NCBI GenBank assembly: GCA_031430855.1
Contig: JANPCG010000013.1
Span: 182,893-246,892 of the forward strand
Source of the DNA: Candidatus Kaiserbacteria bacterium
GTDB lineage: Bacteria > Patescibacteriota > Minisyncoccia > Phycocordibacterales > UBA918
Length of the DNA stretch: 64,000 bases
Direction: 5' to 3'
The notes under the pieces were generated by a model. The model had not been told where the DNA came from. It did not search any database and saw nothing but the letters and a program-made list of their open reading frames with translations. Of this stretch, positions 2,032 through 48,035 are shown in pieces. Both the position numbers and the translations under genes were made by a program. The number at the start of each line of letters is the position of its first letter. Position 1 is the stretch's first letter.

Positions 2032-3336
2032 ATGACACACTCACGTAACCTCAATTCACCGTATGATTCATTGATTTTTCCTTATATCTTAAGGAATAAC
2101 TCACAATACAGAAAGCGATTTCACATTAGTAACTACCATGAGTTCAAAGTTAATTTTATTTCAGGTACCGAAATTCCTGTAAAATATGATTTTTTATATG
2201 ATCAGAGGTATGAAAAAAAGCTTCAACGGTTAGTTGAATTAGAGACTAAAATTCTCCCACAATCTAATGTTGGAGAGCTTATTGAAAAGTTATATAAAGC
2301 AAAGATTGTTGAGAAGCGAAAGTTACTCATGCTCGTACGTTCTGCGTACGAGGCGCAGGCAAATACAACTGGTGGCTCAGAAGCTGCTCATATGTTTAAT
2401 CAACTTACGAAAGAAGTATTTGGAGCACCGTCACTTGATGTCTTTCGGCAATTAATGTCTACCATTAATGATGACATTAGTTCAGTTGGTTGGGAGTCAA
2501 AAAATTCTGAAGCGTATCATCGGTTTAGTCAAATTGCGCTGGCGAGCGAGGGTGAAAGCACCATTACAAAATTTACTCCAGCTCCACGTAAAGATTTGAG
2601 TGACCATAGCTCGTTTGTGTCAGAGGCGAACGAAGTGGTAGCCTTTTTTAAAGGGAAAATGTTAGCTCTGGGTTTACATGACTGGGCAGTACAAATTAGC
2701 GATAAACCAATTGAGAGTTTTAGAGTGTATGGAAAAAGGAAAGTACTACTGGTGCCGAAAACAAGTGTTATTAAAAGTCGTAAAAATGAACGACGTCTTT
2801 CCATTGATGTAATGGAAGGCTTGTTTGCTCATGAAGTCCTTACACACGTCATACGTGGTGTAAATGGTGCACAATCTGGACTCCTGTTACTGTCTCATGG
2901 TTTAGCTGGATATTTACCTGGGGAAGAGGGCATTGCAACTTTTCGAGAGCAGCAGTATAGCAGTGCGAAAGATTATGCTGGTAAAACGATGTATTTAGCC
3001 TTAGGCTTGGCCTACGGTCTTGACCGAAATGGACAACCAAGAACATTTAGAGAGGTGTATGAGATTTTAAGTGATTACTTTACCCTAAAGTTTGGCGGTT
3101 TTAGTAAAAAAGTACAAGCAAAAGCTTTTGTAACTTGTGCGAGAATTTTTGTCGTAAGTCCACATCAAAATATCCCTCTTATTTTTACTCGAGACATTGT
3201 CTATCGTGAAGGAAATATTGCAATAAACACTGCCGTACAAGCTGATGATACCCTGCTTGAAATATTTGATGTGGGTAAATTTAATCCCGTAAATACTGAA
3301 CACGTTGCAATACTAAAAAGTCTTAATATTATTTAA
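2032..3336 (+). CDS. DUF1704/MATCAP-like zinc carboxypeptidase, paralog 2
   Basis: HEVLTH plus GEEGIATFREQQ, DYAG and RIFVVSPHQNIPLIFTRDIVYREGNIA. Clear tandem paralog of 617..2005. Confidence 0.55.
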   Translation: MTHSRNLNSPYDSLIFPYILRNNSQYRKRFHISNYHEFKVNFISGTEIPVKYDFLYDQRYEKKLQRLVELETKILPQSNVGELIEKLYKAKIVEKRKLLMLVRSAYEAQANTTGGSEAAHMFNQLTKEVFGAPSLDVFRQLMSTINDDISSVGWESKNSEAYHRFSQIALASEGESTITKFTPAPRKDLSDHSSFVSEANEVVAFFKGKMLALGLHDWAVQISDKPIESFRVYGKRKVLLVPKTSVIKSRKNERRLSIDVMEGLFAHEVLTHVIRGVNGAQSGLLLLSHGLAGYLPGEEGIATFREQQYSSAKDYAGKTMYLALGLAYGLDRNGQPRTFREVYEILSDYFTLKFGGFSKKVQAKAFVTCARIFVVSPHQNIPLIFTRDIVYREGNIAINTAVQADDTLLEIFDVGKFNPVNTEHVAILKSLNII

Positions 3337-4091
3337 TCTCTTAGTACAATAGTTGTTACAACAGTATGATCGTATTTTTTGATACTCTCATATTTAAAAA
3401 GTGTGTCTTTGTGAACACAAAGGAATGCCTGGGTAATACATTTGGATGCTTCTTTTGGTTGTTCAAAAATTAACGTATCTGTGGTTACCTTGTCGGTGTC
3501 GAAGGTGTCGGTTTCATATGATCCGGTAGGAAGCTCAATCGAGCAACCTACGGATAGTTTAAAGAGCGCTAGTCCAATACTGGCATTTATTCCGTAAGGA
3601 TTTCTATCTTTACCATGAGAAATCTTTGAGTAGCCATTTTCTATAGCCCAGACATTCATTAAATATTCGGTATAGAGTGACGGTCCTGCAGGCAAACTAT
3701 TATGCTGCCATTCGTTAGGATAGATTCTGTACGCAAAGGTAAGACTCTTAGTTCTCGCTGCAAAAATAGTTGCTCCAACAGATATGTTGTTTTCCTTTAA
3801 TATAAGTATGTAGTAGGGATATTCAGCTTCTTTTCCTAACGTGGTTGCAAAAATGTCATTAACTTTCGGATTATTTTTAACTTGAATAGTAGCGTTGTAA
3901 AGAGGAGTAAACCACTCAAGATGAGTTGAGGTTAAAAGCTCAATGGAATAAGTGACGGTACTCGATTCAATTTTACGTAACGTGGTTTTTATTCGAGATA
4001 AATGATTTTTGCCAAAACCAGCAAATGCGTCATCGGTAAGTTTTTTTGCCCACATATGATGTGAAGGATACGTTATAATCATGAAAATCAA
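3333..4091 (-). CDS. FemAB/Acetyltransf_6-like GNAT-fold protein (putative aminoacyl or peptidyl transferase)
   Basis: C-terminal pattern LYTEYLMNVWAIENGY...NPYG...GLALFKLSVG resembles the Fem-family LLQWEAIKWAKENGY...GLYRFKKGFG block. Overlaps the stop of 2032..3336 by 4 bp. Confidence 0.45.
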   Translation of the reverse strand: MIFMIITYPSHHMWAKKLTDDAFAGFGKNHLSRIKTTLRKIESSTVTYSIELLTSTHLEWFTPLYNATIQVKNNPKVNDIFATTLGKEAEYPYYILILKENNISVGATIFAARTKSLTFAYRIYPNEWQHNSLPAGPSLYTEYLMNVWAIENGYSKISHGKDRNPYGINASIGLALFKLSVGCSIELPTGSYETDTFDTDKVTTDTLIFEQPKEASKCITQAFLCVHKDTLFKYESIKKYDHTVVTTIVLRD

Positions 4092-4206
4092 TCATAACAG
4101 AATTTATTACCATTGAGGTTAGTGAAAGTATTGTTATTTATAGTAAAATGTGTTATAGTACCGACTCCGAAACATTTAAAAATAAATATTTTTAAACCAC
4201 TACTTT

Positions 4207-5499
4207 TTGCAAATAAACAGATCCGTCATATTTACTTCTATGTCCTCCAAAAAAGCAATTTTGTTTGTTGAGCAGTATATGCCTAAAACACTTAAAAGTG
4301 TGAGGGATTATTTTGGTGATATTACACTCATAGTCTTGCGCGATATCAAAAATGAAAAAAATGAAAAAAACCGGCACTTTAAATCCGCTGATGTCATTTT
4401 ATATGTTGATTTTTCAAAGTCGTACAAAATTGCTGAAGCCCTCCTTCCGTATCAAGAATCGTTAATCGCAGTAACGGCTCGTGGCGAAGATGGTGCTAAC
4501 AAATTACGGGAGGTTATTCCACACGTACCCTATTTGCGCACGCCAACTGCTGAATCACTTGCGTGGGCAACTGATAAGTATGAGATGCGAAAACGTTTCT
4601 GGCTCTACGATAAAAAAATTACTCCAAAATTCACTAAAGTAAAAGAAAATACTAAAATTGAACGAGAACGAATAATACAAAAAATTAATTTTCCGATGGT
4701 CGTAAAACCAGCAAACTTGCAAGAGAGTATGTTGGTTGCAATATGTTTTCATGAAGAAGAATTAGAAAAAGTGTTACGAAATATCTTTCGACGCTTAAAA
4801 TCAGAGTATAAAAAATTCAACCGAACGCAGTTACCTACAATCATTTCAGAAGAGTATATGGATGGAGATATGTACTCTATTGATAGTTATGTAAACTCGC
4901 GAGGTAAAATATTTCATTGCCCGATGGTGCGGGTAAAAACTGGTCGTAACATTGGTCATGATGATTTTTATAATTACTTGCAAATTACACCAACTGCACT
5001 CAAAAAAGAATCAATCGAAAAGGCACATAACGTAGCCGAGCTGGCTGTTCATGCGCTTGGGTTGCGAAGCACTACTGCTCATATTGAATTGATGAAAATA
5101 GATGATGTTTGGAAGGTGATTGAAGTAGGTCCGCGTGTTGGTGGGTTCAGAGACTTACTGCATGAACTAAGTTGTGATATCGATCATTCTCTTAATGATG
5201 TATTAATTCGTGTACCAAAAAAGCCAATCATTCCAAAAAAATGTAAGGGTTTTGCTGCGGCGATGAAATGGTTTGCTAAGACCGAGGGGATTATTACCGA
5301 AATGAAAGGAATCAAAAAAATTGAGCAACTTGAGTCTTTCAATAGTATTGTCTTTAACAAAAAGATTGGTGACCGAGCACTATTCTCTAAAAATGGGGGA
5401 AAATCTATTTTTAACTTGTTTTTATTTAATGCTGACCGGGCAAAGTTACTTGCGGATATTCGCCGCGTTGAACAACTGATAACCATTAAAGTTAAATAA
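4207..5499 (+). CDS. ATP-grasp family ligase
   Basis: EEYMDGDMYSIDSYV and HIELMKIDDVWKVIEVGPRVGG (E-x-N/G-x-R-x-GG Mg/ATP site) are typical of ATP-grasp carboxylate-amine ligases. Confidence 0.7.
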   Translation: MQINRSVIFTSMSSKKAILFVEQYMPKTLKSVRDYFGDITLIVLRDIKNEKNEKNRHFKSADVILYVDFSKSYKIAEALLPYQESLIAVTARGEDGANKLREVIPHVPYLRTPTAESLAWATDKYEMRKRFWLYDKKITPKFTKVKENTKIERERIIQKINFPMVVKPANLQESMLVAICFHEEELEKVLRNIFRRLKSEYKKFNRTQLPTIISEEYMDGDMYSIDSYVNSRGKIFHCPMVRVKTGRNIGHDDFYNYLQITPTALKKESIEKAHNVAELAVHALGLRSTTAHIELMKIDDVWKVIEVGPRVGGFRDLLHELSCDIDHSLNDVLIRVPKKPIIPKKCKGFAAAMKWFAKTEGIITEMKGIKKIEQLESFNSIVFNKKIGDRALFSKNGGKSIFNLFLFNADRAKLLADIRRVEQLITIKVK

Positions 5500-6991: not shown

Positions 6992-7080
6992 AAAAGGGAT
7001 GGGACCCTTTTCGCAAGAGGTTGCCAGCTATTTTGGAAAAATAGCGACAACCTGTACAGCTTCTGTAAGAAGAGAAAACT
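6985..7080 (-). repeat. structured repeat family 1, copy A (reverse orientation)
   Basis: Reverse complement aligns with copies at 31738-31899 and 24515-24595: CTTACAGAAGCTGTACAGGTTGTCG ... TTTTTCCAAAA.AGCTGGCAA ... CTTGCGA-[8-bp hairpin 6991-7012]-TCAC. Confidence 0.6.
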
Positions 7081-7202
7081 CTCGACCCGCTTCCGCAAGA
7101 CCGTGCCAGATATTTCTGAAGCGAAGCGAACAGAATTAACGACACGGTGTACCGTTTCTGTAAGAAACAGACATCAATCAAATTATTTGAAATACTGAAA
7201 CT

Positions 7203-28187: not shown

Positions 28188-29021
28188 ATGTGGAGATTTC
28201 TGCGGCAGTGTCTGGTATTTTGCATCATCGTTATTTTTTTCTCGTTGTTGCTTACGGGGTATTTTTTTCGTACACCGAGTCTGGAGCGAGCCTGGTCACT
28301 TGATCAACGTGTATTGCCCAGCGCAGTGATTGTAGGAGACGAGATTGCGATTTATAACGTGCGTAATTTTACCTACCGGACAAAAGATGACTATACGCCC
28401 TATTACGAAGACCGAACCTACCGTCTCAGTGAGCTCGAGCGGGTAGATTATATCGTTGAGGCTTTTGGGAGTATTGGAGCAGCGCATACCTTTTTAAGTT
28501 TTGGCTTTAAAAATGGTGAGCAGGTGGCTATTTCAGCGGAAATCCGTAAAGAAGAGGGTGAGAAATTTTCACCATGGCTCGGGATGTTACGCCAATATGA
28601 ACTCATGTATGTAATTGCAGACGAGCGAGATGTAATTAAACTTCGCACCAATTATCGTAAAAATCTGGTTTATCTGTATCCCGTGAAAGCCAGTCCGACG
28701 GATATTCAGACATTGTTTGTCTCGATGCTTGAACGCACTAACGCACTTACCAAAAATCCTGAGTTTTATAACACGATTACGAATACCTGTACTACCAACA
28801 TCGCCTCCCATGTTAATGAAATTGCACCGGGACGAATACCATTTGATCTTCGATTATTGTTACCGCAATACTCAGATCGTCTCGCGTATGAATCGGGACT
28901 ACTCGCAACCGATGTGCCGCTTAGTGAATTACAGTCTACCCATCAAATCAATGAGGCGGCGTTGGAGTTTGCTGATGATCCAAACTTTTCGAAGCAGATT
29001 AGGGGTCGTCAGAGTCAATAA
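28188..29021 (+). CDS. DUF4105-like membrane-anchored protein, hypothetical
   Basis: N-terminal TM helix. The VRNFTYR segment resembles the DUF4105 (Lnb N-terminal-like) family. Weak. Confidence 0.3.
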   Translation: MWRFLRQCLVFCIIVIFFSLLLTGYFFRTPSLERAWSLDQRVLPSAVIVGDEIAIYNVRNFTYRTKDDYTPYYEDRTYRLSELERVDYIVEAFGSIGAAHTFLSFGFKNGEQVAISAEIRKEEGEKFSPWLGMLRQYELMYVIADERDVIKLRTNYRKNLVYLYPVKASPTDIQTLFVSMLERTNALTKNPEFYNTITNTCTTNIASHVNEIAPGRIPFDLRLLLPQYSDRLAYESGLLATDVPLSELQSTHQINEAALEFADDPNFSKQIRGRQSQ

Positions 29022-29027
29022 TTATTC

Positions 29028-30023
29028 TTAAAGTTTAATCTTGAGCTGAATAGCTGCTGTTACTGCATCAACACTGTTAGCTGGCGTATTCAATTTTACT
29101 GCAGAATCATATTTACTAAAGTCAGTTTCGCTATAATCAAGTAGGTACGTAGTCTTGTTCTTTTCAGTAATTGGTATCCACGTTGCACTGACAATTTTTA
29201 CTGGCTTCTTTGAAGTATTGTCTATCCAAACTGATATATATGAGTAATCAGCAATGAATTGAGTCACGTTTTCATTTGAAAGGCTTTTAATAAAAGTCTT
29301 ATCAGTAAGTAATCCATAACCTGCTTCATCCAGAGTGAGTGTCTTTGTTAATTCTGTAAAAAATGGCTTAATAGCTGAAGCTTTAAATTCAAAGTTATAG
29401 CGAGTGGTATTAGGAACCGTAATATCATCATCAATATCGTCTGTATATTTTTGCCAAAGTCCGCTATTAGTGGCTGCCAATACCCCCTTAGTAGTTGAAT
29501 TTTTTTCTTCGCTGATTGATTTTGTACTAAAAACTTCAAATAGTGCAGATACTCCTAAACCTTCTCCTATTTTTTCATATTGTGAACCGTTGGCCTTAAT
29601 CCATTTATTGCGTAATGACTTATTTTTAAGTTGCTCTGGTTTGAAATAAATATTTTGCCCATCAGAAATTACCGCCATTTGATAGAGATACTTTGGCTTT
29701 GTTTTGCCCGTTTCAAACGTAATAGTAGAGCTCGAAACACCTAGCTGCGTGGTGTTGGTTGCATAAAACATAATCCCAAACTGGGTTTTACCCGTGTAAA
29801 ATAATGGTTTCTTATCTCCCATTTTTTTATAAACATAGGAAATATTTACGCTATCAACGGTAACATTTTGAGCGTTTTGAGGAATATCAGTTGCCGTCTT
29901 AATAAACTCATTAGGTGAAAGATTGTTCCAATTTGTTTGGGCAAAAACACTATTGGTGTTTACGACATAAATACTAGCAAGTAGTAGGCAAAATATAATT
30001 TTTTTCATTTTTTTAGTATACAA
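29028..30023 (-). CDS. secreted hypothetical protein
   Basis: Signal peptide MKKIIFCLLLASIYVVNTNSVFA. Asn/Thr/Lys-rich. Confidence 0.4.
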   Translation of the reverse strand: MYTKKMKKIIFCLLLASIYVVNTNSVFAQTNWNNLSPNEFIKTATDIPQNAQNVTVDSVNISYVYKKMGDKKPLFYTGKTQFGIMFYATNTTQLGVSSSTITFETGKTKPKYLYQMAVISDGQNIYFKPEQLKNKSLRNKWIKANGSQYEKIGEGLGVSALFEVFSTKSISEEKNSTTKGVLAATNSGLWQKYTDDIDDDITVPNTTRYNFEFKASAIKPFFTELTKTLTLDEAGYGLLTDKTFIKSLSNENVTQFIADYSYISVWIDNTSKKPVKIVSATWIPITEKNKTTYLLDYSETDFSKYDSAVKLNTPANSVDAVTAAIQLKIKL

Positions 30024-31452: not shown

Positions 31453-31477
31453 TCATTTCCCGGACTCATGCGTTCGC

Positions 31478-31612
31478 TGCGGAGAGGGGATTCGAAACTT
31501 ACAGTTTCAGTACCCCAATTGGATACTTTAGTTCGCTTCACTTCTAAAGTCTCTCAATCGGGCTTCGAATCCCCACATGAGTGACATTGAGTCACTCATT
31601 CACCCTCCGCTC
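31478..31612 (+). repeat. tRNA-end-flanked structured repeat family 2, copy Z
   Basis: Left end GCGGAGAGGGGATTCGAA and right end (inverted) CACCCTCCGC both mimic the tRNA-Ser 3' acceptor/T-arm. Internal ACTTACAGTTTCAGTACCCC, GGGCTTCGAATCCCCAC and the hairpin ATGAGTGACATTGAGTCACTCAT. Confidence 0.55.
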
Positions 31613-31630
31613 CTTTATTCCATTCAGTCG

Positions 31631-31717
31631 CGGAGGGTGGGAGATTCGAACTCCCGATCAGATTGCTCCGATACTGCCTTTCCAAGGCAGCGCACTAGGC
31701 CACTATGCGAACCCTCC
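31631..31717 (-). tRNA. tRNA-Ser (anticodon GGA)
   Basis: Reverse complement folds as a cloverleaf: acceptor GGAGGGT/ACCCTCC, anticodon loop cTTGGAAa (GGA), long variable arm, T-arm GGGAGTTCGAATCTCCC. No encoded CCA. Confidence 0.85.
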
Positions 31718-31737: not shown

Positions 31738-31899
31738 ACTTCTTACAGAAGCTGTAAATTCTACGAATTCTGTACAGGTTGTCGTTACTGCGTAACAGGC
31801 AACCTCCTGAAACAATATATTATACTGTTTCAGCCTATCACTCTTTTTCCAAAAGAGCTGGCAAGGTCTTGCGAAAGTCTCCCAGACTTTCTCACACTC
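31738..31899 (+). repeat. structured repeat family 1, copy B (longest)
   Basis: CTTCTTACAGAAGCTGTA ... CAGGTTGTCG ... [50-nt insert with perfect hairpin CTGAAACA/TGTTTCAG] ... TTTTTCCAAAAGAGCTGGCAAGGTCTTGCGA-[GAAAGTCT ccc AGACTTTC]-TCACACTC. Confidence 0.6.
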
Positions 31900-31963
31900 T
31901 GCCACCTCTCCGTGGTGGCGCTATCATACATTATAATTGTCACTCTTTAAAATATCTGTATAC

Positions 31964-41406: not shown

Positions 41407-41667
41407 TTATAAAGACTGTTGAGGCGGTAAGATTCCCATCTCTTTTGCTGCGGCGCGCATTGCTTCACTAACCTTATTGAGTGCTTCTGCGCGCTCGACC
41501 AGCATTTCGAAAAATGATTCGAATACCGCTGGGCCGAATCCTTCGATAGCGAGAAGTACGCTGGCTGCAATAGCGAACTTGCGCGTGTCTTCGTCCGAAG
41601 ATTTCTTTCCGTCTTCGATCAAAGCAGCGAAGCGGTTCTTCAAAGCTTGGTCCATTTGTTTCCTCAC
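41407..41667 (-). CDS. hypothetical small helical protein
   Basis: Preceded by TTGACA-N17-TACTGT on the minus strand and followed by the terminator hairpin CCGCCCTCCAACGGTCTTT/AAAGACTGTTGAGGCGG. Confidence 0.4.
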   Translation of the reverse strand: MRKQMDQALKNRFAALIEDGKKSSDEDTRKFAIAASVLLAIEGFGPAVFESFFEMLVERAEALNKVSEAMRAAAKEMGILPPQQSL

Positions 41668-41774
41668 TTCATGTTCTGTTCACTTGAAACAGTAGCACAG
41701 TATATGTGCTATGTCAATATTTGGTGTCATAAATTGGGCTGGTTCAGAACTCTTTGTAAATAAATAGAAAATGC

Positions 41775-41871
41775 TATTTAAAAAGAAAACCGCCCTCCGT
41801 CGTAACGAAGTTTGGTTTTCGTTTCCACCCCGCCTAGGACTTTCCACCCCGCCTAGGACTCTCCTAGGCGG
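41775..41871 (-). ncRNA. candidate sRNA with its own promoter and terminator
   Basis: Minus-strand -35 TTGACA (41900-41905), 17-bp spacer, -10 TATTAA (41877-41882). The transcript starts in the 9-bp palindrome CCGCCTAGG-actct-CCTAGGCGG, continues through a tandem repeat (GGTGGAAAGTCCTAGGCGG x2) and ends in GGAGGGCGGTTTTCTTTTT. Confidence 0.35.
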
Positions 41872-41876
41872 AGTCT

Positions 41877-41905
41877 TTAATAGTACAGTATATGTGCTAT
41901 GTCAA
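41877..41905 (-). promoter_or_regulatory. sigma70-like promoter (TTGACA-17-TATTAA)
   Basis: Read directly from the minus strand. A near-identical module is at 41693-41720 upstream of ORF 41407..41667. Confidence 0.45.
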
Positions 41906-41912
41906 TCCCTTG

Positions 41913-42043
41913 CTCCCGGGGCAGGAATCGAAGCTTAACGCTTCAGTACATCCTGTCGCTATTTTGTTCGCAAGGTCCAAAATAAGCAGGCAGGGTCTTC
42001 GAATCCTGACACGAGTGACGTTTAGTCACTCGTTTCCGGGGAG
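41913..42043 (+). repeat. tRNA-end-flanked structured repeat family 2, copy X
   Basis: CTCCCGGGGCAGGAATCGAAGCTTAACGCTTCAGTACATCC ... GCAAGGTCC ... GGGTCTTCGAATCCTGACACGAGTGACGTTTAGTCACTCGTTTCCGGGGAG, followed by the terminator-like hairpin CCACACTTGCGTGTGG. Confidence 0.55.
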
Positions 42044-42583
42044 TATATAAAAGTAAAGACCACACTTGCGTGTGGCCTAAACTTTTATATGCTCCAATTG
42101 TTCTGGTCGATTAGAACTTTTTATATGCACAATGATAGCAGGGTGATGGTGCCTTTTTTAAATGTAACACGTCCCAGTAACTAACCGCCAACACAAGGCT
42201 CGCCTAGCGAGTATTCTTTTTCGCATTCTATCTCTACCTGTGATACTTTCCAGATATACATAGCAGAAATAGCGACACAAAGTATAAGAGCGAAGTACAG
42301 AAACTTTTTCATTAAAGAAATTGTACCATGTCTAATTGCGTACATATGATGTCAATGAAATATCAATGTGGTGTATGTGTTCCGTAAGCTGGACGGGTCC
42401 AGAACTCTTGGTAAATAGATTTAGACAAGCAAATTGGTCACAAATTCAAAGAGAATTGGATTGGAGTGGGATTTTGTATTTTTACCAAAGGCAAGTACTT
42501 CAGAACTTGGGTGTATAAAAAAGAAAAACCGCCGCTTCGTTATGAGACGAAGCGTTGGCTTTTCGTCCCACCGAAGTGGCGGT

Positions 42584-43153
42584 TTACACGTTCACCCAAG
42601 GAGCGGTTGCAAGTATCCACGCCTGTCGCAAATCATCGACAGGCATCAGGTCGCGTAACTTACCCACCGGGTAAAGAGGGCGGTCGTTGGGGTCTTCTGA
42701 TAGAACGATGTGCGCCTCCCCGATATCGACGATGAACGACTTTTCTAATACGTCAAAGCGTTTGATATTCGCCCCGACTACTTGTGGGCTGAACTCGTCC
42801 CACTTCTGGCCTGAGAAGTTGGACATCAGTGGTCTGTGAATGTTGTATTGTTCGGGATGTGCCCCTAGACACTGTCCGTTGACTTTCAACCAGCAAGCGG
42901 CTCCCCATAGACAGAGGATGAGCCATTCTCCAGACTGGCTTTCATCAGCTTCGAGGTTGAAGCCGACGAAGCCAGGACCACCCTGTCCATACGTTCCACA
43001 GGAGGGAGAAAACTCGATAACTTTTCGGCCAATGAGGCTGCCGAAGTCGATATTTCTCCTGAGTGATACATCATTATCGCCGTATGCTCGAATGATCTTG
43101 CTTTCTTTTTTCACGATCGCCTCCGTTTCAAAAGTGTTAAATCCAAAAAACAC
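42584..43153 (-). CDS. hypothetical protein
   Basis: No known family. Followed by a strong terminator (CGCTTCGT..ACGAAGCG nested in AAACCGCC..GGCGGTTT, then T-run). Confidence 0.4.
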   Translation of the reverse strand: MFFGFNTFETEAIVKKESKIIRAYGDNDVSLRRNIDFGSLIGRKVIEFSPSCGTYGQGGPGFVGFNLEADESQSGEWLILCLWGAACWLKVNGQCLGAHPEQYNIHRPLMSNFSGQKWDEFSPQVVGANIKRFDVLEKSFIVDIGEAHIVLSEDPNDRPLYPVGKLRDLMPVDDLRQAWILATAPWVNV

Positions 43154-43275
43154 TATACATTAGATTTGTATAGTGTCAATGTTTTTCTCCCTGGGCAGGA
43201 GTTTCTCCCTCGACTAATTTTCTAGCGAAAATTGTCTAGGCACCGACTCGCTGTTGTTGCACAACATGCTCCGTC

Positions 43276-43318
43276 GTTCGAATCCTGACGAAATGTGCGC
43301 AGGCACATTTCTCCCAGG
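43276..43318 (+). repeat. family 2 partial copy W (right half only)
   Basis: CGTTCGAATCCTGACGAA-[AAATGTGC gcag GCACATTT]-CTCCCAGG. Confidence 0.4.
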
Positions 43319-43362
43319 TCGCTCGTACAGAAAACACCAGACAAAAGATGTCTGGTGTTTTC

Positions 43363-43492
43363 TTTACTCGCTTCCCGGGCAGGATTCGAAGCTTACAGCT
43401 TCGGTACACCTTGCGGATTTTCTTTCGCAGGCTCAAGAAAAATCTCGCAAGGTCTTCGAATCCTGACGAACGTGACATTTAGTCACGTTCTC
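43363..43492 (+). repeat. tRNA-end-flanked structured repeat family 2, copy Y
   Basis: The left end CCCGGGCAGGATTCGAA is identical to 17 nt of the adjacent tRNA-Asn 3' region. Internal GCTTACAGCTTCGGTACACC, CGCAAGGTCTTCGAATCCTGAC and hairpin GAACGTGACATTTAGTCACGTTC. The right end CTCCCGGGGAGCC is the inverted tRNA 3' end. Confidence 0.55.
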
Positions 43493-43502
43493 CCGGGGAG
43501 CC

Positions 43503-43533
43503 AAAAAATCAAAAACCACACTTGCGTGTGGTT
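43503..43533 (-). terminator. rho-independent terminator of tRNA-Asn
   Basis: CCACAC-ttgc-GTGTGG followed (on the minus strand) by TTTTTGATTTTTT. Confidence 0.6.
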
Positions 43534-43547
43534 AAAGATTTTTACGG

Positions 43548-43619
43548 CTCCCCGGGCAGGATTCGAACCTGCGACCAATCGATTAACAGTCGACTGCTCT
43601 ACCGCTGAGCTACCGAGGA
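43548..43619 (-). tRNA. tRNA-Asn (anticodon GUU)
   Basis: Reverse complement TCCTCGG-TA-GCTC-AGCGGTA-GAGC-A-GTCGA-cTGTTAa-TCGAT-TGGTC-GCAGG-TTCGAAT-CCTGC-CCGGGGA-G. Canonical 72-nt cloverleaf, no encoded CCA. Confidence 0.85.
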
Positions 43620-43897
43620 AGGTGGCTACTACTTTTACCTCATCTACACTTTAGTTTCGAATGACTCGATGCGCAGTCGACTTCGTCGACCTTCGTACCG
43701 AAGCTGTCCACTCATTCGTCTCTTTCATTCGCTTCGCTCTGAAAGATATTGAATGAGTCTTGAGAAGTGACATTGAGTCACTTCTCACTAAGCTACCTAA
43801 GGAAGGTGGCTACTTACTTACCAGAAGTTGGTAAGTTGTTGTATTGTACAGAAAAATCGCTAAAACTCAAATTTTCTAAGGGGAAGTCAGTTAGGTA

Positions 43898-47839: not shown

Positions 47840-47934
47840 AGGGTGGTTGTATGGGGTACTATAGCGTATTTGGTTATAAAAATGAAGCAAAACAACAACC
47901 GCAAGGTTGTATGTTTTGCTTCGTTCCCGTTGCT

Positions 47935-48035
47935 GTCATTCCTTACAGGAACAGTACACCCTTTGGATAGTTTCTTCAAAACTATCTCAAATGGTTTTGA
48001 AGAGTGACATTTAGTCACTCTTCAACCCAGGCAGA
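47935..48035 (+). repeat. structured repeat family 2, variant copy V
   Basis: CCTTACAGGAACAGTACACC ... GAAGAGTGACATTTAGTCACTCTTC-AACCCAGGCAG, preceded by CCGCAAGGTTG. Confidence 0.45.

Follow-up and report, generated by a model that had tools for sequence, protein, structure and literature searches.

Integron attC sites and the CTXphi attP(+) site are folded single-strand sites used by tyrosine recombinases (IntI, XerCD). Islander-type tRNA islands are built by repeated site-specific integration (PMC4383910), and in the tycheposon islands of Prochlorococcus partial tRNAs are pushed outward (10.1101/2020.12.28.424599). The filamentous phiRSM phages of Ralstonia carry a serine recombinase and use the tRNA-Ser 3′ end as their integration site (PMC4471427); inoviruses are also on record for the Candidate Phyla Radiation (CPR) (PMC6813254). 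Here we analyze a 64-kb stretch of DNA from Candidatus Kaiserbacteria bacterium, an uncultured, ultra-small member of the CPR (contig JANPCG010000013.1, positions 182,893 to 246,892; hereafter the window), in which an island at 41.7–43.9 kb, read on the minus strand, follows a tRNA-Asn(GTT) gene and carries several copies of a branched inverted repeat, hereafter the unit, that mirrors the 3′ end of the local tRNA. The island is best read as a tRNA-Asn-anchored accretion zone of small gene cassettes, neither devoid of open reading frames (ORFs) nor mainly a small-RNA (sRNA) locus, in which the units may serve as mimics of DNA attachment sites. All coordinates are window positions unless a locus is named, and L-numbers (L001, L002, L011, L104 etc.) denote related or unit-bearing loci fetched for comparison.

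The locus shares with Islander and tycheposon islands an intact tRNA at one end, scattered partial copies of the tRNA 3′ end, outward displacement of older elements by newer ones, decayed remnants, integrase-less cargo and some large serine recombinases. As expected of a tRNA island, its border tRNA is intact, segments of the tRNA 3′ end recur as direct repeats, and its content varies between relatives with breakpoints at the repeats; a serine recombinase was not found in the window by tblastn, such enzymes instead occupying homologous positions in other loci. Unlike in those systems, the tRNA copy is embedded here in a branched inverted repeat with a complementary 5′ arm, the cassettes are 0.3–1 kb long with their own promoter and terminator, and the host belongs to the CPR. 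With phiRSM, the elements described below share a G2P-type rolling-circle Rep beside a serine recombinase, and both integrate at the 3′ end of a tRNA; they differ in that the phiRSM enzyme is small, of resolvase type, and works with a 13-bp core, whereas the recombinases here are large and of ~490 amino acids (aa), no pI/Zot morphogenesis gene was recognised in the elements, and the units are not part of them.

The units further resemble attC and CTXphi attP(+) in conserving structure over sequence and in having inverted arms 60–90 nt apart that rebuild a target-like duplex, and they resemble attC in bounding short cassettes arrayed beside one fixed site. However, attC sites have RYYYAAC/GTTRRRY cores, whereas the unit ends are, by inspection, tRNA-derived and the cassettes have their own promoters; IntI was not seen at units, tyrosine recombinases not having been searched systematically, and for the units we only infer folding as a single strand. 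Short, abundant, structured intergenic repeats that often lie beside terminators are also known as repetitive extragenic palindromes and bacterial interspersed mosaic elements (REP/BIME), enterobacterial repetitive intergenic consensus (ERIC) sequences, Correia elements, repeat units in pneumococcus (RUP) and miniature inverted-repeat transposable elements (MITEs); the units differ from all of these in that their outer arms are copied from the neighboring tRNA and their copies are divergent, with compensatory changes. A MITE was rejected specifically, as the arms vary by locus and follow the tRNA, and the window copies are 74–81% identical to one another rather than near-identical. The branched inverted-repeat module mirroring a tRNA end appears to be new—no description of it was found in the literature searched—while accretion at tRNA genes is itself a known pattern.

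Anatomy of the unit

Each unit spans ~130–135 nt, and in its outer stem the local tRNA is repeated in inverted form from the T-loop to the 3′ end (the last ~20 nt). Read along the tRNA strand, the 5′ half consists of an arm complementary to the 3′ strand of the tRNA acceptor stem, an optional hairpin P2 (often GUGAC-UAAAU-GUCAC), and the complement of the T-stem 3′ strand followed by GGAUUCGAA. The 3′ half comprises the long hairpin P4, the linker GUAC, the short hairpin P5 (GAANNN-GUA-NNNUUC) and GAAUCC, after which the sequence is that of the tRNA itself: the 3′ strands of the T-stem and acceptor stem and then the discriminator. P2 interrupts the outer stem, which closes a conserved junction of P4, GUAC and P5. 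In unit Y, the first behind tRNA-Asn (Table 1), these parts are the 5′ arm CUCCCCGGG, P2 of the common GUGAC-UAAAU-GUCAC form, CAGGAUUCGAA, P4, GUAC, P5 and UUCGAAUCCUGCCCGGGAAG, the last stretch being a copy of tRNA-Asn from the T-loop to the 3′ end.

Two further copies, W and X, lie within the island. Unit W is 88% identical to the units of L011, a syntenic locus, over the hairpin and 5′ half. In unit X the arms are compensated (CCUGGG/CCCAGG), and X has a P2 of its own together with GUCAGGAUUCGAA and a different core; its 3′ arm, GAGAAACUCCUGCCCAGGGAG, is decayed and resembles the L011 units. X was not found at E ≤ 1 by R1, a covariance model built from relatives of the window units. Copies of the tRNA 3′ segment of the TTCGAATCCTG type lie at 43380-43390 and 41922-41932, with a decayed copy in X (repeat D2). 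In total, the 64 kb hold about ten unit copies or relatives, and both tRNA genes of the window are followed by a unit. The original prediction had correctly recognised X, W and Y as one repeat family (its family 2); it missed that these repeats mirror the tRNA 3′ end and that a further copy stands behind tRNA-Ser.

Relatives of the unit core that retain P2, P4, GUAC and P5 and lack the T-loop segment were found at 7004-7168 (plus strand) and, on the minus strand, at 47932-48030, 31745-31900 and 43620-43815 (Z). All are intergenic and point in the same direction as the flanking genes; two lie directly upstream of the window's tRNAs. They represent either decayed units or a broader family.

Searches against Rfam 15, with gathering thresholds for the whole window and E ≤ 10 for the region, matched only tRNAs, the remaining hits having E > 0.3, far below the cut-offs; on the units no tRNA or tRNA-like match appeared even at E ≤ 10, and ARAGORN called only the true tRNAs. 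A tRNA cloverleaf (RF00005) with D, anticodon and T arms was ruled out for the units, and no Rfam intron match in the window pointed to a group I intron within a tRNA. Transfer-messenger RNA (tmRNA) or tRNA-like domains, hammerhead-type three-way junctions, T-boxes, type III toxin–antitoxin repeats, retron RNA, IS110 bridge RNA and TnpB/IscB omega RNA were dropped by eye because their anatomy does not fit.

Distribution and association with tRNA genes

A pattern derived from Y and W matched six loci among 185,579 species genomes, all of them metagenome-assembled genomes of CPR/Patescibacteria (Saccharibacteria, Kaiserbacteria, Nomurabacteria and 'Patescibacteria group'), and a T-stem-free pattern matched at least 120 metagenome stretches; we take the family to be widespread and specific to the CPR. 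The metagenome sample is defined by its T-loop pattern, and invariance at the T-loop positions is uninformative. For 90 of the 139 units in the matches listed, a tRNA lies upstream on the same strand, no more than 400 nt away (median 64 nt), and for none is the only upstream tRNA on the opposite strand. At least 20 tRNA or anticodon types precede units, Ser being the commonest; tRNA-Asn keeps units across lineages (the window, L061, L103, L130 and L051). Identity between a unit and its tRNA begins in the T-loop, and its commonest end point is precisely the 3′ end of the tRNA. When pairs of near-identical cores were compared, 51 of 86 had different arms, including one pair with a 100% identical 64-nt core, which indicates that cores and arms are exchanged or templated separately.

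Two peculiarities of the associated tRNAs were recorded along the way. Ahead of its unit, L006 (positions 1-90) contains only the 3′ part of tRNA-Asn from U36 on (TG and then TAATCGATTGG...), which fits a group I intron at position 35/36; such introns are common in Patescibacteria, and the study describing them deals with position 35/36 only and mentions no downstream repeats (PMC13011429). ARAGORN also called many tRNA-Ser genes with anticodon ACT (A34), an oddity for bacteria, in L035, L050, L100, L101, L104, L113, L123 and L125; this could reflect a genuine trait of the CPR or an error in calling.

Arrays and differences between strains and species

Units recur in unit–cargo–unit arrays with one arm type per locus (L022, L059, L041 over 6.2 kb, L051, L083 and L011), as well as in tight tandem arrays of 3–5 units with a period of 127–180 nt. 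L011 is syntenic with the window: its order is tRNA-Asn, a cassette, a ~150-nt module (M), a unit, the cassette of a 176-aa protein, M, another cassette, M and a unit—a tRNA-Asn-anchored layout like that of the window with partly different cassettes. Every cassette in L011 opens with a TTGACA promoter immediately behind a tRNA 3′ end, real or decayed, and closes with a homologous terminator plus M.

Differences were also evident within one strain. L002, from the same strain in another sample, leaves the window sequence inside a decayed tRNA-end boundary (window 42049-42118; L002 2380-2460) and continues into sequence absent from the window, while L001 ends inside the island (at window position 43759). 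That independent same-strain assemblies break or diverge inside the island indicates that the repeats disrupt assembly and that cassette content differs between samples. The description of the island as a mobile-repeat hotspot rather than decayed coding sequence is borne out by L011, by the divergence of L002 at a pseudo-tRNA-end, and by recombinase elements that abut such repeats elsewhere.

Recombinase elements next to units

The only protein family enriched near units is that of the large serine recombinases (Resolvase, Recombinase and Zn_ribbon_recom domains), although spurious ORFs on the antisense strand of tRNA and unit swell the enrichment cluster. All three Pfam domains are present in the recombinases of L104, L077, L134, L113, L138 and L140, and only Resolvase and Recombinase in that of L139. 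The recombinase gene is convergent to the tRNA, and in five loci (L104, L077, L134, L100 and L038) the element sequence begins 0–2 nt after the '...CCGC' of a unit arm; it begins 0–2 nt after a true tRNA in L139, L140 and L134. Comparison of the occupied locus L104 with the empty loci L035, L110 and L123 showed a shared tRNA-Ser and unit (~95% identical), with homology stopping exactly at the arm end.

A G2P-type rolling-circle Rep, matching PF23343 and phrog_3419, precedes the recombinase in five of the loci examined (L104, L077, L138, L139 and L140), and no family was found for the 583-aa and 309-aa neighbors within the elements. The recombinase family has 2,436 matches in CPR at E ≤ 1e-30, and no relatives in IMG/VR. 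A unit as the far end of a serine-recombinase element, suggested by L134, is not general: L139 and L140 are unit-free, and the right region of L104 holds other hairpins only.

Several recombinase ORFs run on antisense into the unit or tRNA, with T-loop translations GFEP and FES (L104 5979-7748, L134 3-1367, L139 10001-11515 and L140 1075-2559); their C-terminal tails therefore vary with the insertion site, the L104 protein having 590 aa and a 95% identical homologue 496 aa. Short antisense ORFs over tRNA and unit likewise make up a spurious 'protein family'. At 2735-3756 and 5357-6355 of L134 we observed an IS630-type transposase (HTH + DDE_3), within the recombinase element, and a LAGLIDADG-domain ORF, just upstream of the tRNA-Ser. 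Beside the Rep/recombinase element of L138 (11607-21013) are a weak SMODS-domain gene, a Peptidase_S24 gene, an N6_N4 methyltransferase and a second large serine recombinase, a neighborhood that looks like a defense or mobile island.

Covariation and strand symmetry

Covariation was computed on an alignment of 110 unit cores (P4 and P5). Standard pairs occupy 93.5% of core cells against 71.1% after shuffling, 606 cells are changed on both sides against 200, and the covariation score is 0.523 against 0.144, slid partners reaching at most 0.145. The three variable P5 pairs are almost never broken. The pairing is largely symmetric between strands: in P4, G.U occurs 34 times and A.C 24 times, in the acceptor arms 18 and 26 times, both being rare, and the two most variable P5 pairs include no G.U at all.

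The tRNA positions that form G.U pairs are particularly informative about the origin of the 5′ arm. In 14 of 16 informative cases, including G3.U70 of tRNA-Ala, which becomes A-U in the units, the unit 5′ arm is the Watson–Crick complement of the 3′ arm rather than the tRNA 5′ base. In addition, the stem runs on through the discriminator, which is paired in 71 of 109 units. It follows that the 5′ arm repeats the 3′ end in inverted form and is not a tRNA 5′ half, and that the unit is not a chargeable tRNA mimic. The 14 of 16 cases rule out the unit as a remodelled tRNA gene whose 5′ arm was copied from the tRNA 5′ strand, and the replaced G3.U70 and paired discriminator rule out an aminoacylatable mimic of the tmRNA or minihelix kind. 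Watson–Crick-biased, largely strand-symmetric pairing favors a role as a DNA-level attachment site over one as RNA; judged from sequence patterns, the DNA-level role is favored on balance without being settled.

Interpretation of the units

We hold, at about even confidence, that the units are DNA attachment-site mimics in a tRNA-anchored integration hotspot. Because nothing distinguishes the 3′ arm of a unit from the 3′ end of a tRNA, recombinases aimed at tRNA ends would recombine there as well, and here these would be the large serine recombinases encoded beside the rolling-circle Rep. New elements and cassettes would stack behind the tRNA and leave it undamaged, and direct repeats would permit tandem amplification and loss; the cassettes are kept apart by intact or decayed copies of the tRNA from the T-loop to the 3′ end. 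The units would themselves be recombined, rather than merely adjoining the true site, and the fold would act as single-stranded DNA or a cruciform, for example in rolling-circle replication.

Several observations weigh against this attachment-site role. No serine recombinase homologue was found in the 64-kb window by tblastn, tyrosine recombinases not having been searched. Serine recombinases need only a 2-bp match, which leaves the 20-nt identity and the complementary 5′ arm unexplained. The elements fetched via their recombinase (L139 and L140) sit on true tRNAs, with a unit nowhere in the locus; these elements therefore do not need the unit, which would be a look-alike target or an independent hitch-hiker rather than part of the element. 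The unit was never seen as part of a free element, nor was a free circular unit or cassette seen, and units were not found in the viral, phage and plasmid collections searched (zero matches in 2.9 million viral contigs of IMG/VR, none in 50,697 phage records of INPHARED or 72,556 plasmid records of PLSDB). The T-loop-less relatives far from any tRNA (7004-7168 and 47932-48030) are unexplained by a pure attachment-site role. Finally, the T-stem shows an excess of G.U (31 against 9 A.C, p = 7e-4), and the covariance model scores far higher on the sense strand (96 against 18 bits), so that the units may yet yield sense-strand RNA. A clear sense-strand G.U signature was nevertheless dropped, since the excess is confined to the T-stem.

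It is rather unlikely that the units encode a structured small RNA transcribed from the tRNA strand. Such an RNA would mimic the acceptor/T-arm helix and be trimmed by RNase P and RNase Z; it might serve as decoy or regulator or stabilise the ends of neighboring transcripts, recombinases landing nearby only through the likeness to tRNA. The strong covariation and conserved three-way junction would fit such an RNA, as would the co-orientation with tRNAs, the T-stem G.U excess and the conservation across very distant CPR lineages; tRNA identity stops at the discriminator, the cut point of RNase Z, and the T-loop-less relatives are co-oriented with flanking genes in four other intergenic regions. 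However, the equal rarity of G.U and A.C in P4 and the acceptor arms and the lack of G.U in P5 argue for DNA, and the replacement of tRNA G.U pairs by Watson–Crick pairs destroys, for example, the identity pair of tRNA-Ala. With the discriminator so often paired, the end of the unit is unlike a tRNA end, and no Rfam family matches. Moreover, a terminator separates tRNA and unit in about two-thirds of cases (65% of the spacers carry a terminator-like hairpin, mostly bidirectional), and space for a promoter is lacking.

A variant of the attachment-site role, drawn by analogy and in our view unlikely, would make the units folded-DNA recombination sites like attC and CTXphi attP(+), the stem rebuilding the duplex of the tRNA 3′ end, with integrase-less cassettes captured at tRNA genes by recombinases supplied in trans. 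Cassettes might then circulate as single-stranded rolling-circle products, and the system may use serine rather than tyrosine recombinases.

Quite improbable is a role as decoy landing pads kept by the host, in which a spare tRNA 3′ end within a stable palindrome diverts insertions from the essential tRNA. Insertion of elements after unit arms with the upstream tRNA untouched would agree with this, as would the presence of a unit behind both window tRNA genes and the retention of units by the same tRNA types across lineages (e.g. Asn). Yet the conserved P2, P4 and P5 would be superfluous in a decoy, the tandem arrays of 3–5 units resemble amplification rather than design, and the recombinases here insert after the tRNA and not inside it, leaving no damage for a decoy to avert. 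Equally poor in probability is the view of units as neutral scars, that is, displaced tRNA 3′ fragments left by past integrations, which fold-back or template-switch repair turned into palindromes and gene conversion homogenised, with covariation as a mutational by-product. Watson–Crick-only, strand-symmetric complementarity, stems that often extend past the tRNA end, identical cores with different arms, and the common decayed copies (X, the ends of M, Z) would fit such scars. The three-hairpin architecture, GUAC linker and GUA loop are, however, shared by Saccharibacteria, Kaiserbacteria, Nomurabacteria and many metagenomes despite turnover of the stem sequences, and repair accidents would not repeatedly recreate such an architecture.

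Organization of the island in the window

Read on the minus strand, the island begins behind the MarR gene with Z, tRNA-Asn, a bidirectional terminator hairpin (T1), unit Y, hairpin T2 and unit X; then come a strong promoter, a 176-aa ORF with its terminator and the M module, followed by a 43-aa ORF behind a diverged promoter module, the decayed 3′ fragment of a tRNA-Asn together with a T1-like hairpin, and unit W. Beyond W lie a promoter module fused to a cassette-type terminator, an M remnant, and a promoter module with an 86-aa ORF and its terminator, the latter ORF sitting just outside the stretch 41668-43897 (Table 1). A typical cassette brings its own promoter, followed by a short ORF and a homologous terminator, except that one (41780-41906) lacks an ORF.

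Table 1. Features of the tRNA-Asn island in minus-strand order, and the tRNA-Ser locus of the same window
Feature	Position	Strand	Evidence or remark
MarR gene	44359-43898	-	First gene ahead of the island
Z, T-loop-less unit relative directly upstream of tRNA-Asn; ~190 nt, structured	43620-43815	-	R1 partial match 43690-43761, 28.2 bits
tRNA-Asn(GTT), island anchor; CCA not encoded, uninterrupted	43546-43619	-	ARAGORN; Rfam tRNA 71.7 bits
Spacer T1 between tRNA-Asn and unit Y; bidirectional terminator-like hairpin AACCACACGCAAGTGTGGTT + T-run	43512-43545	-	
Unit Y	43369-43502	-	Covariance model R1 86.5 bits; fold z-score -8.3
Hairpin T2, AAAACACCAGACA..TGTCTGGTGTTTT, 3′ of unit Y	43330-43362		Inverted repeat I1
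Unit X, diverged	43187-43320	-	Fold z -4.3; shares only ends with Y and W
Promoter of 176-aa gene, TTGACA-16-TATAGT; begins directly after unit X arm	43152-43179	-	11/12 consensus positions
Cassette gene, 176 aa (189 aa from upstream GTG)	42584-43114	-	10 homologues
Cassette terminator, ACCGCC...GGCGGUUUUUCUUUUUU	42512-42583	-	Fold -33.7 kcal/mol, z -6.7; homologous terminators in L011
M module, ~150 nt, carries GGTCCAGAACTCTTGGTAAATA	42374-42533	-	83% identical to three or four L011 copies
Diverged promoter module + putative 43-aa ORF (MKKFLYFALILCVAISA...; ORF 42181-42312)	42181-42352	-	
Decayed tRNA-Asn 3′ fragment (..TAATCGACC..GGAGC) + T1-like hairpin	42049-42118	-	
Unit W	41909-42048	-	Covariance model R1 69.2 bits
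'Empty cassette': promoter module (41878-41906) + palindrome + 19-nt repeat (two copies) + cassette-type terminator	41780-41906	-	
M-module remnant (41730-41765) + promoter module (41693-41718), ahead of 86-aa ORF (41407-41667)	41690-41765	-	
tRNA-Ser(GGA) (31630-31717), then unit 58 nt on (core 31482-31578)	31470-31717	-	Best-scoring unit of the window, 95.9 bits

All the motifs named in the original prediction, tRNA-Asn among them, are indeed present. The promoter-like module recurs as 26 nt at 41693-41718 and 41881-41906 (96% identity, D9), the two occurrences of CCACACTTGCGTGTGG lie within 47-nt repeats (D4), the AAACACCAGACA..TGTCTGGTGTTT hairpin corresponds to inverted repeat I1, the shared GGTYCAGAACTCTTKGTAAATA module was located at 41730-41765 and 42385-42420 (D5), and the palindrome CCGCCTAGG-ACTCT-CCTAGGCGG at 41849-41871. 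The abundance of terminator hairpins likewise held up, with 14 terminator-like sites against 2.9 ± 1.8 in shuffles. By contrast, the supposed 17-nt tandem repeat is two copies of 19 nt (41822-41859, D10), and consensus promoter-like sites are not in excess, 5 standing against 3.8 expected. The minus-strand TTGACA-N17-TATTAA promoter proposed at 41883 fails the consensus scan, in which the only strong promoter is TTGACA-16-TATAGT before the 176-aa ORF (43179-43152). To call the stretch nearly ORF-free was misleading: the 176-aa ORF is conserved, and the 43-aa and 86-aa ORFs each stand behind a copy of the promoter module.

The triplicated module and the hairpins had been taken as signs of sRNA; they exist, but the modules are promoters of cassette genes and the hairpins the terminators of those genes, every 'GGCGGTTTTTCTTTTT' hairpin being the minus-strand terminator of a promoter–ORF cassette, and an sRNA or regulatory-RNA hotspot is thus not upheld as the principal description. 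As for the ~95-nt switch-like sRNA itself, the alternative pairings of CCUAGGCGG do appear in the fold, yet the candidate consists of a promoter joined to a cassette-type terminator without an ORF; judged by this make-up it would most simply be an empty cassette, and it could still be transcribed. That the island is chiefly an sRNA or regulatory-RNA locus, with that switch-like transcript launched from the 41883 promoter copy, is very improbable: a promoter-like module does precede a 97-nt stretch that ends in a U-tract, folds strongly (-45.3 kcal/mol, z -4.4) and can pair alternatively through its repeats, but that promoter fails the scan, the terminator half is homologous to cassette terminators, the syntenic L011 island has no counterpart of the candidate, and the remaining 'promoter modules' stand before ORFs.

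The homologues of the 176-aa protein are 49–98% identical to it, and in L011 a 78% identical copy is bracketed by two units. The protein matches no Pfam or PHROG family. This ORF was ruled out as an obligate partner of the unit, as homologues in L012-L017 occur without units. For the 43-aa ORF no homologue was found among the fetched loci. The M module ends, as read by eye, in a decayed stretch resembling the T-loop-to-3′-end segment (GAGTTCTGGACCCGTCCAGCTTACGGAAC), and each M copy in L011 (1805-1961, 2880-3033, 3373-3521 and 5387-5489) is placed after a cassette terminator. The module starts and finishes with GAGTTCTGAA, and its antisense strand has an open frame of ~40 codons (ELLVN.FRQANWSQIQRELD.SGILYFY..QVLQN) in both organisms. 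The T1 hairpin also stands ahead of unit W and of both L011 units. Z is flanked by an imperfect direct repeat of ~28 nt that consists of the 13 nt upstream of tRNA-Asn and the first 15 nt of the tRNA (repeats D8 and D13). Outside the island, two 1-kb stretches of the window (4001-5000 and 29001-30000) have a markedly low G+C content, 0.34 against ~0.45 elsewhere.

Implications

Under either the DNA or the RNA reading, the units have practical consequences, as they break assemblies (contig L001 ends inside the island) and their antisense strand yields spurious ORFs; they also offer a ready marker for variable cassettes in CPR metagenomes. If the units are RNAs, they would form a large new class of tRNA-linked structured RNA. 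If they are recombination sites, they would be compact, programmable mimics of a tRNA end, relevant to the specificity of large serine recombinases and hence to genome-engineering tools; and should the folded-DNA interpretation be true, they would constitute an integron-like, CPR-specific cassette system on tRNA genes. CPR/Patescibacteria, with their tiny genomes, are thought to possess few means of gene exchange, among which the unit family may be a major and overlooked one.

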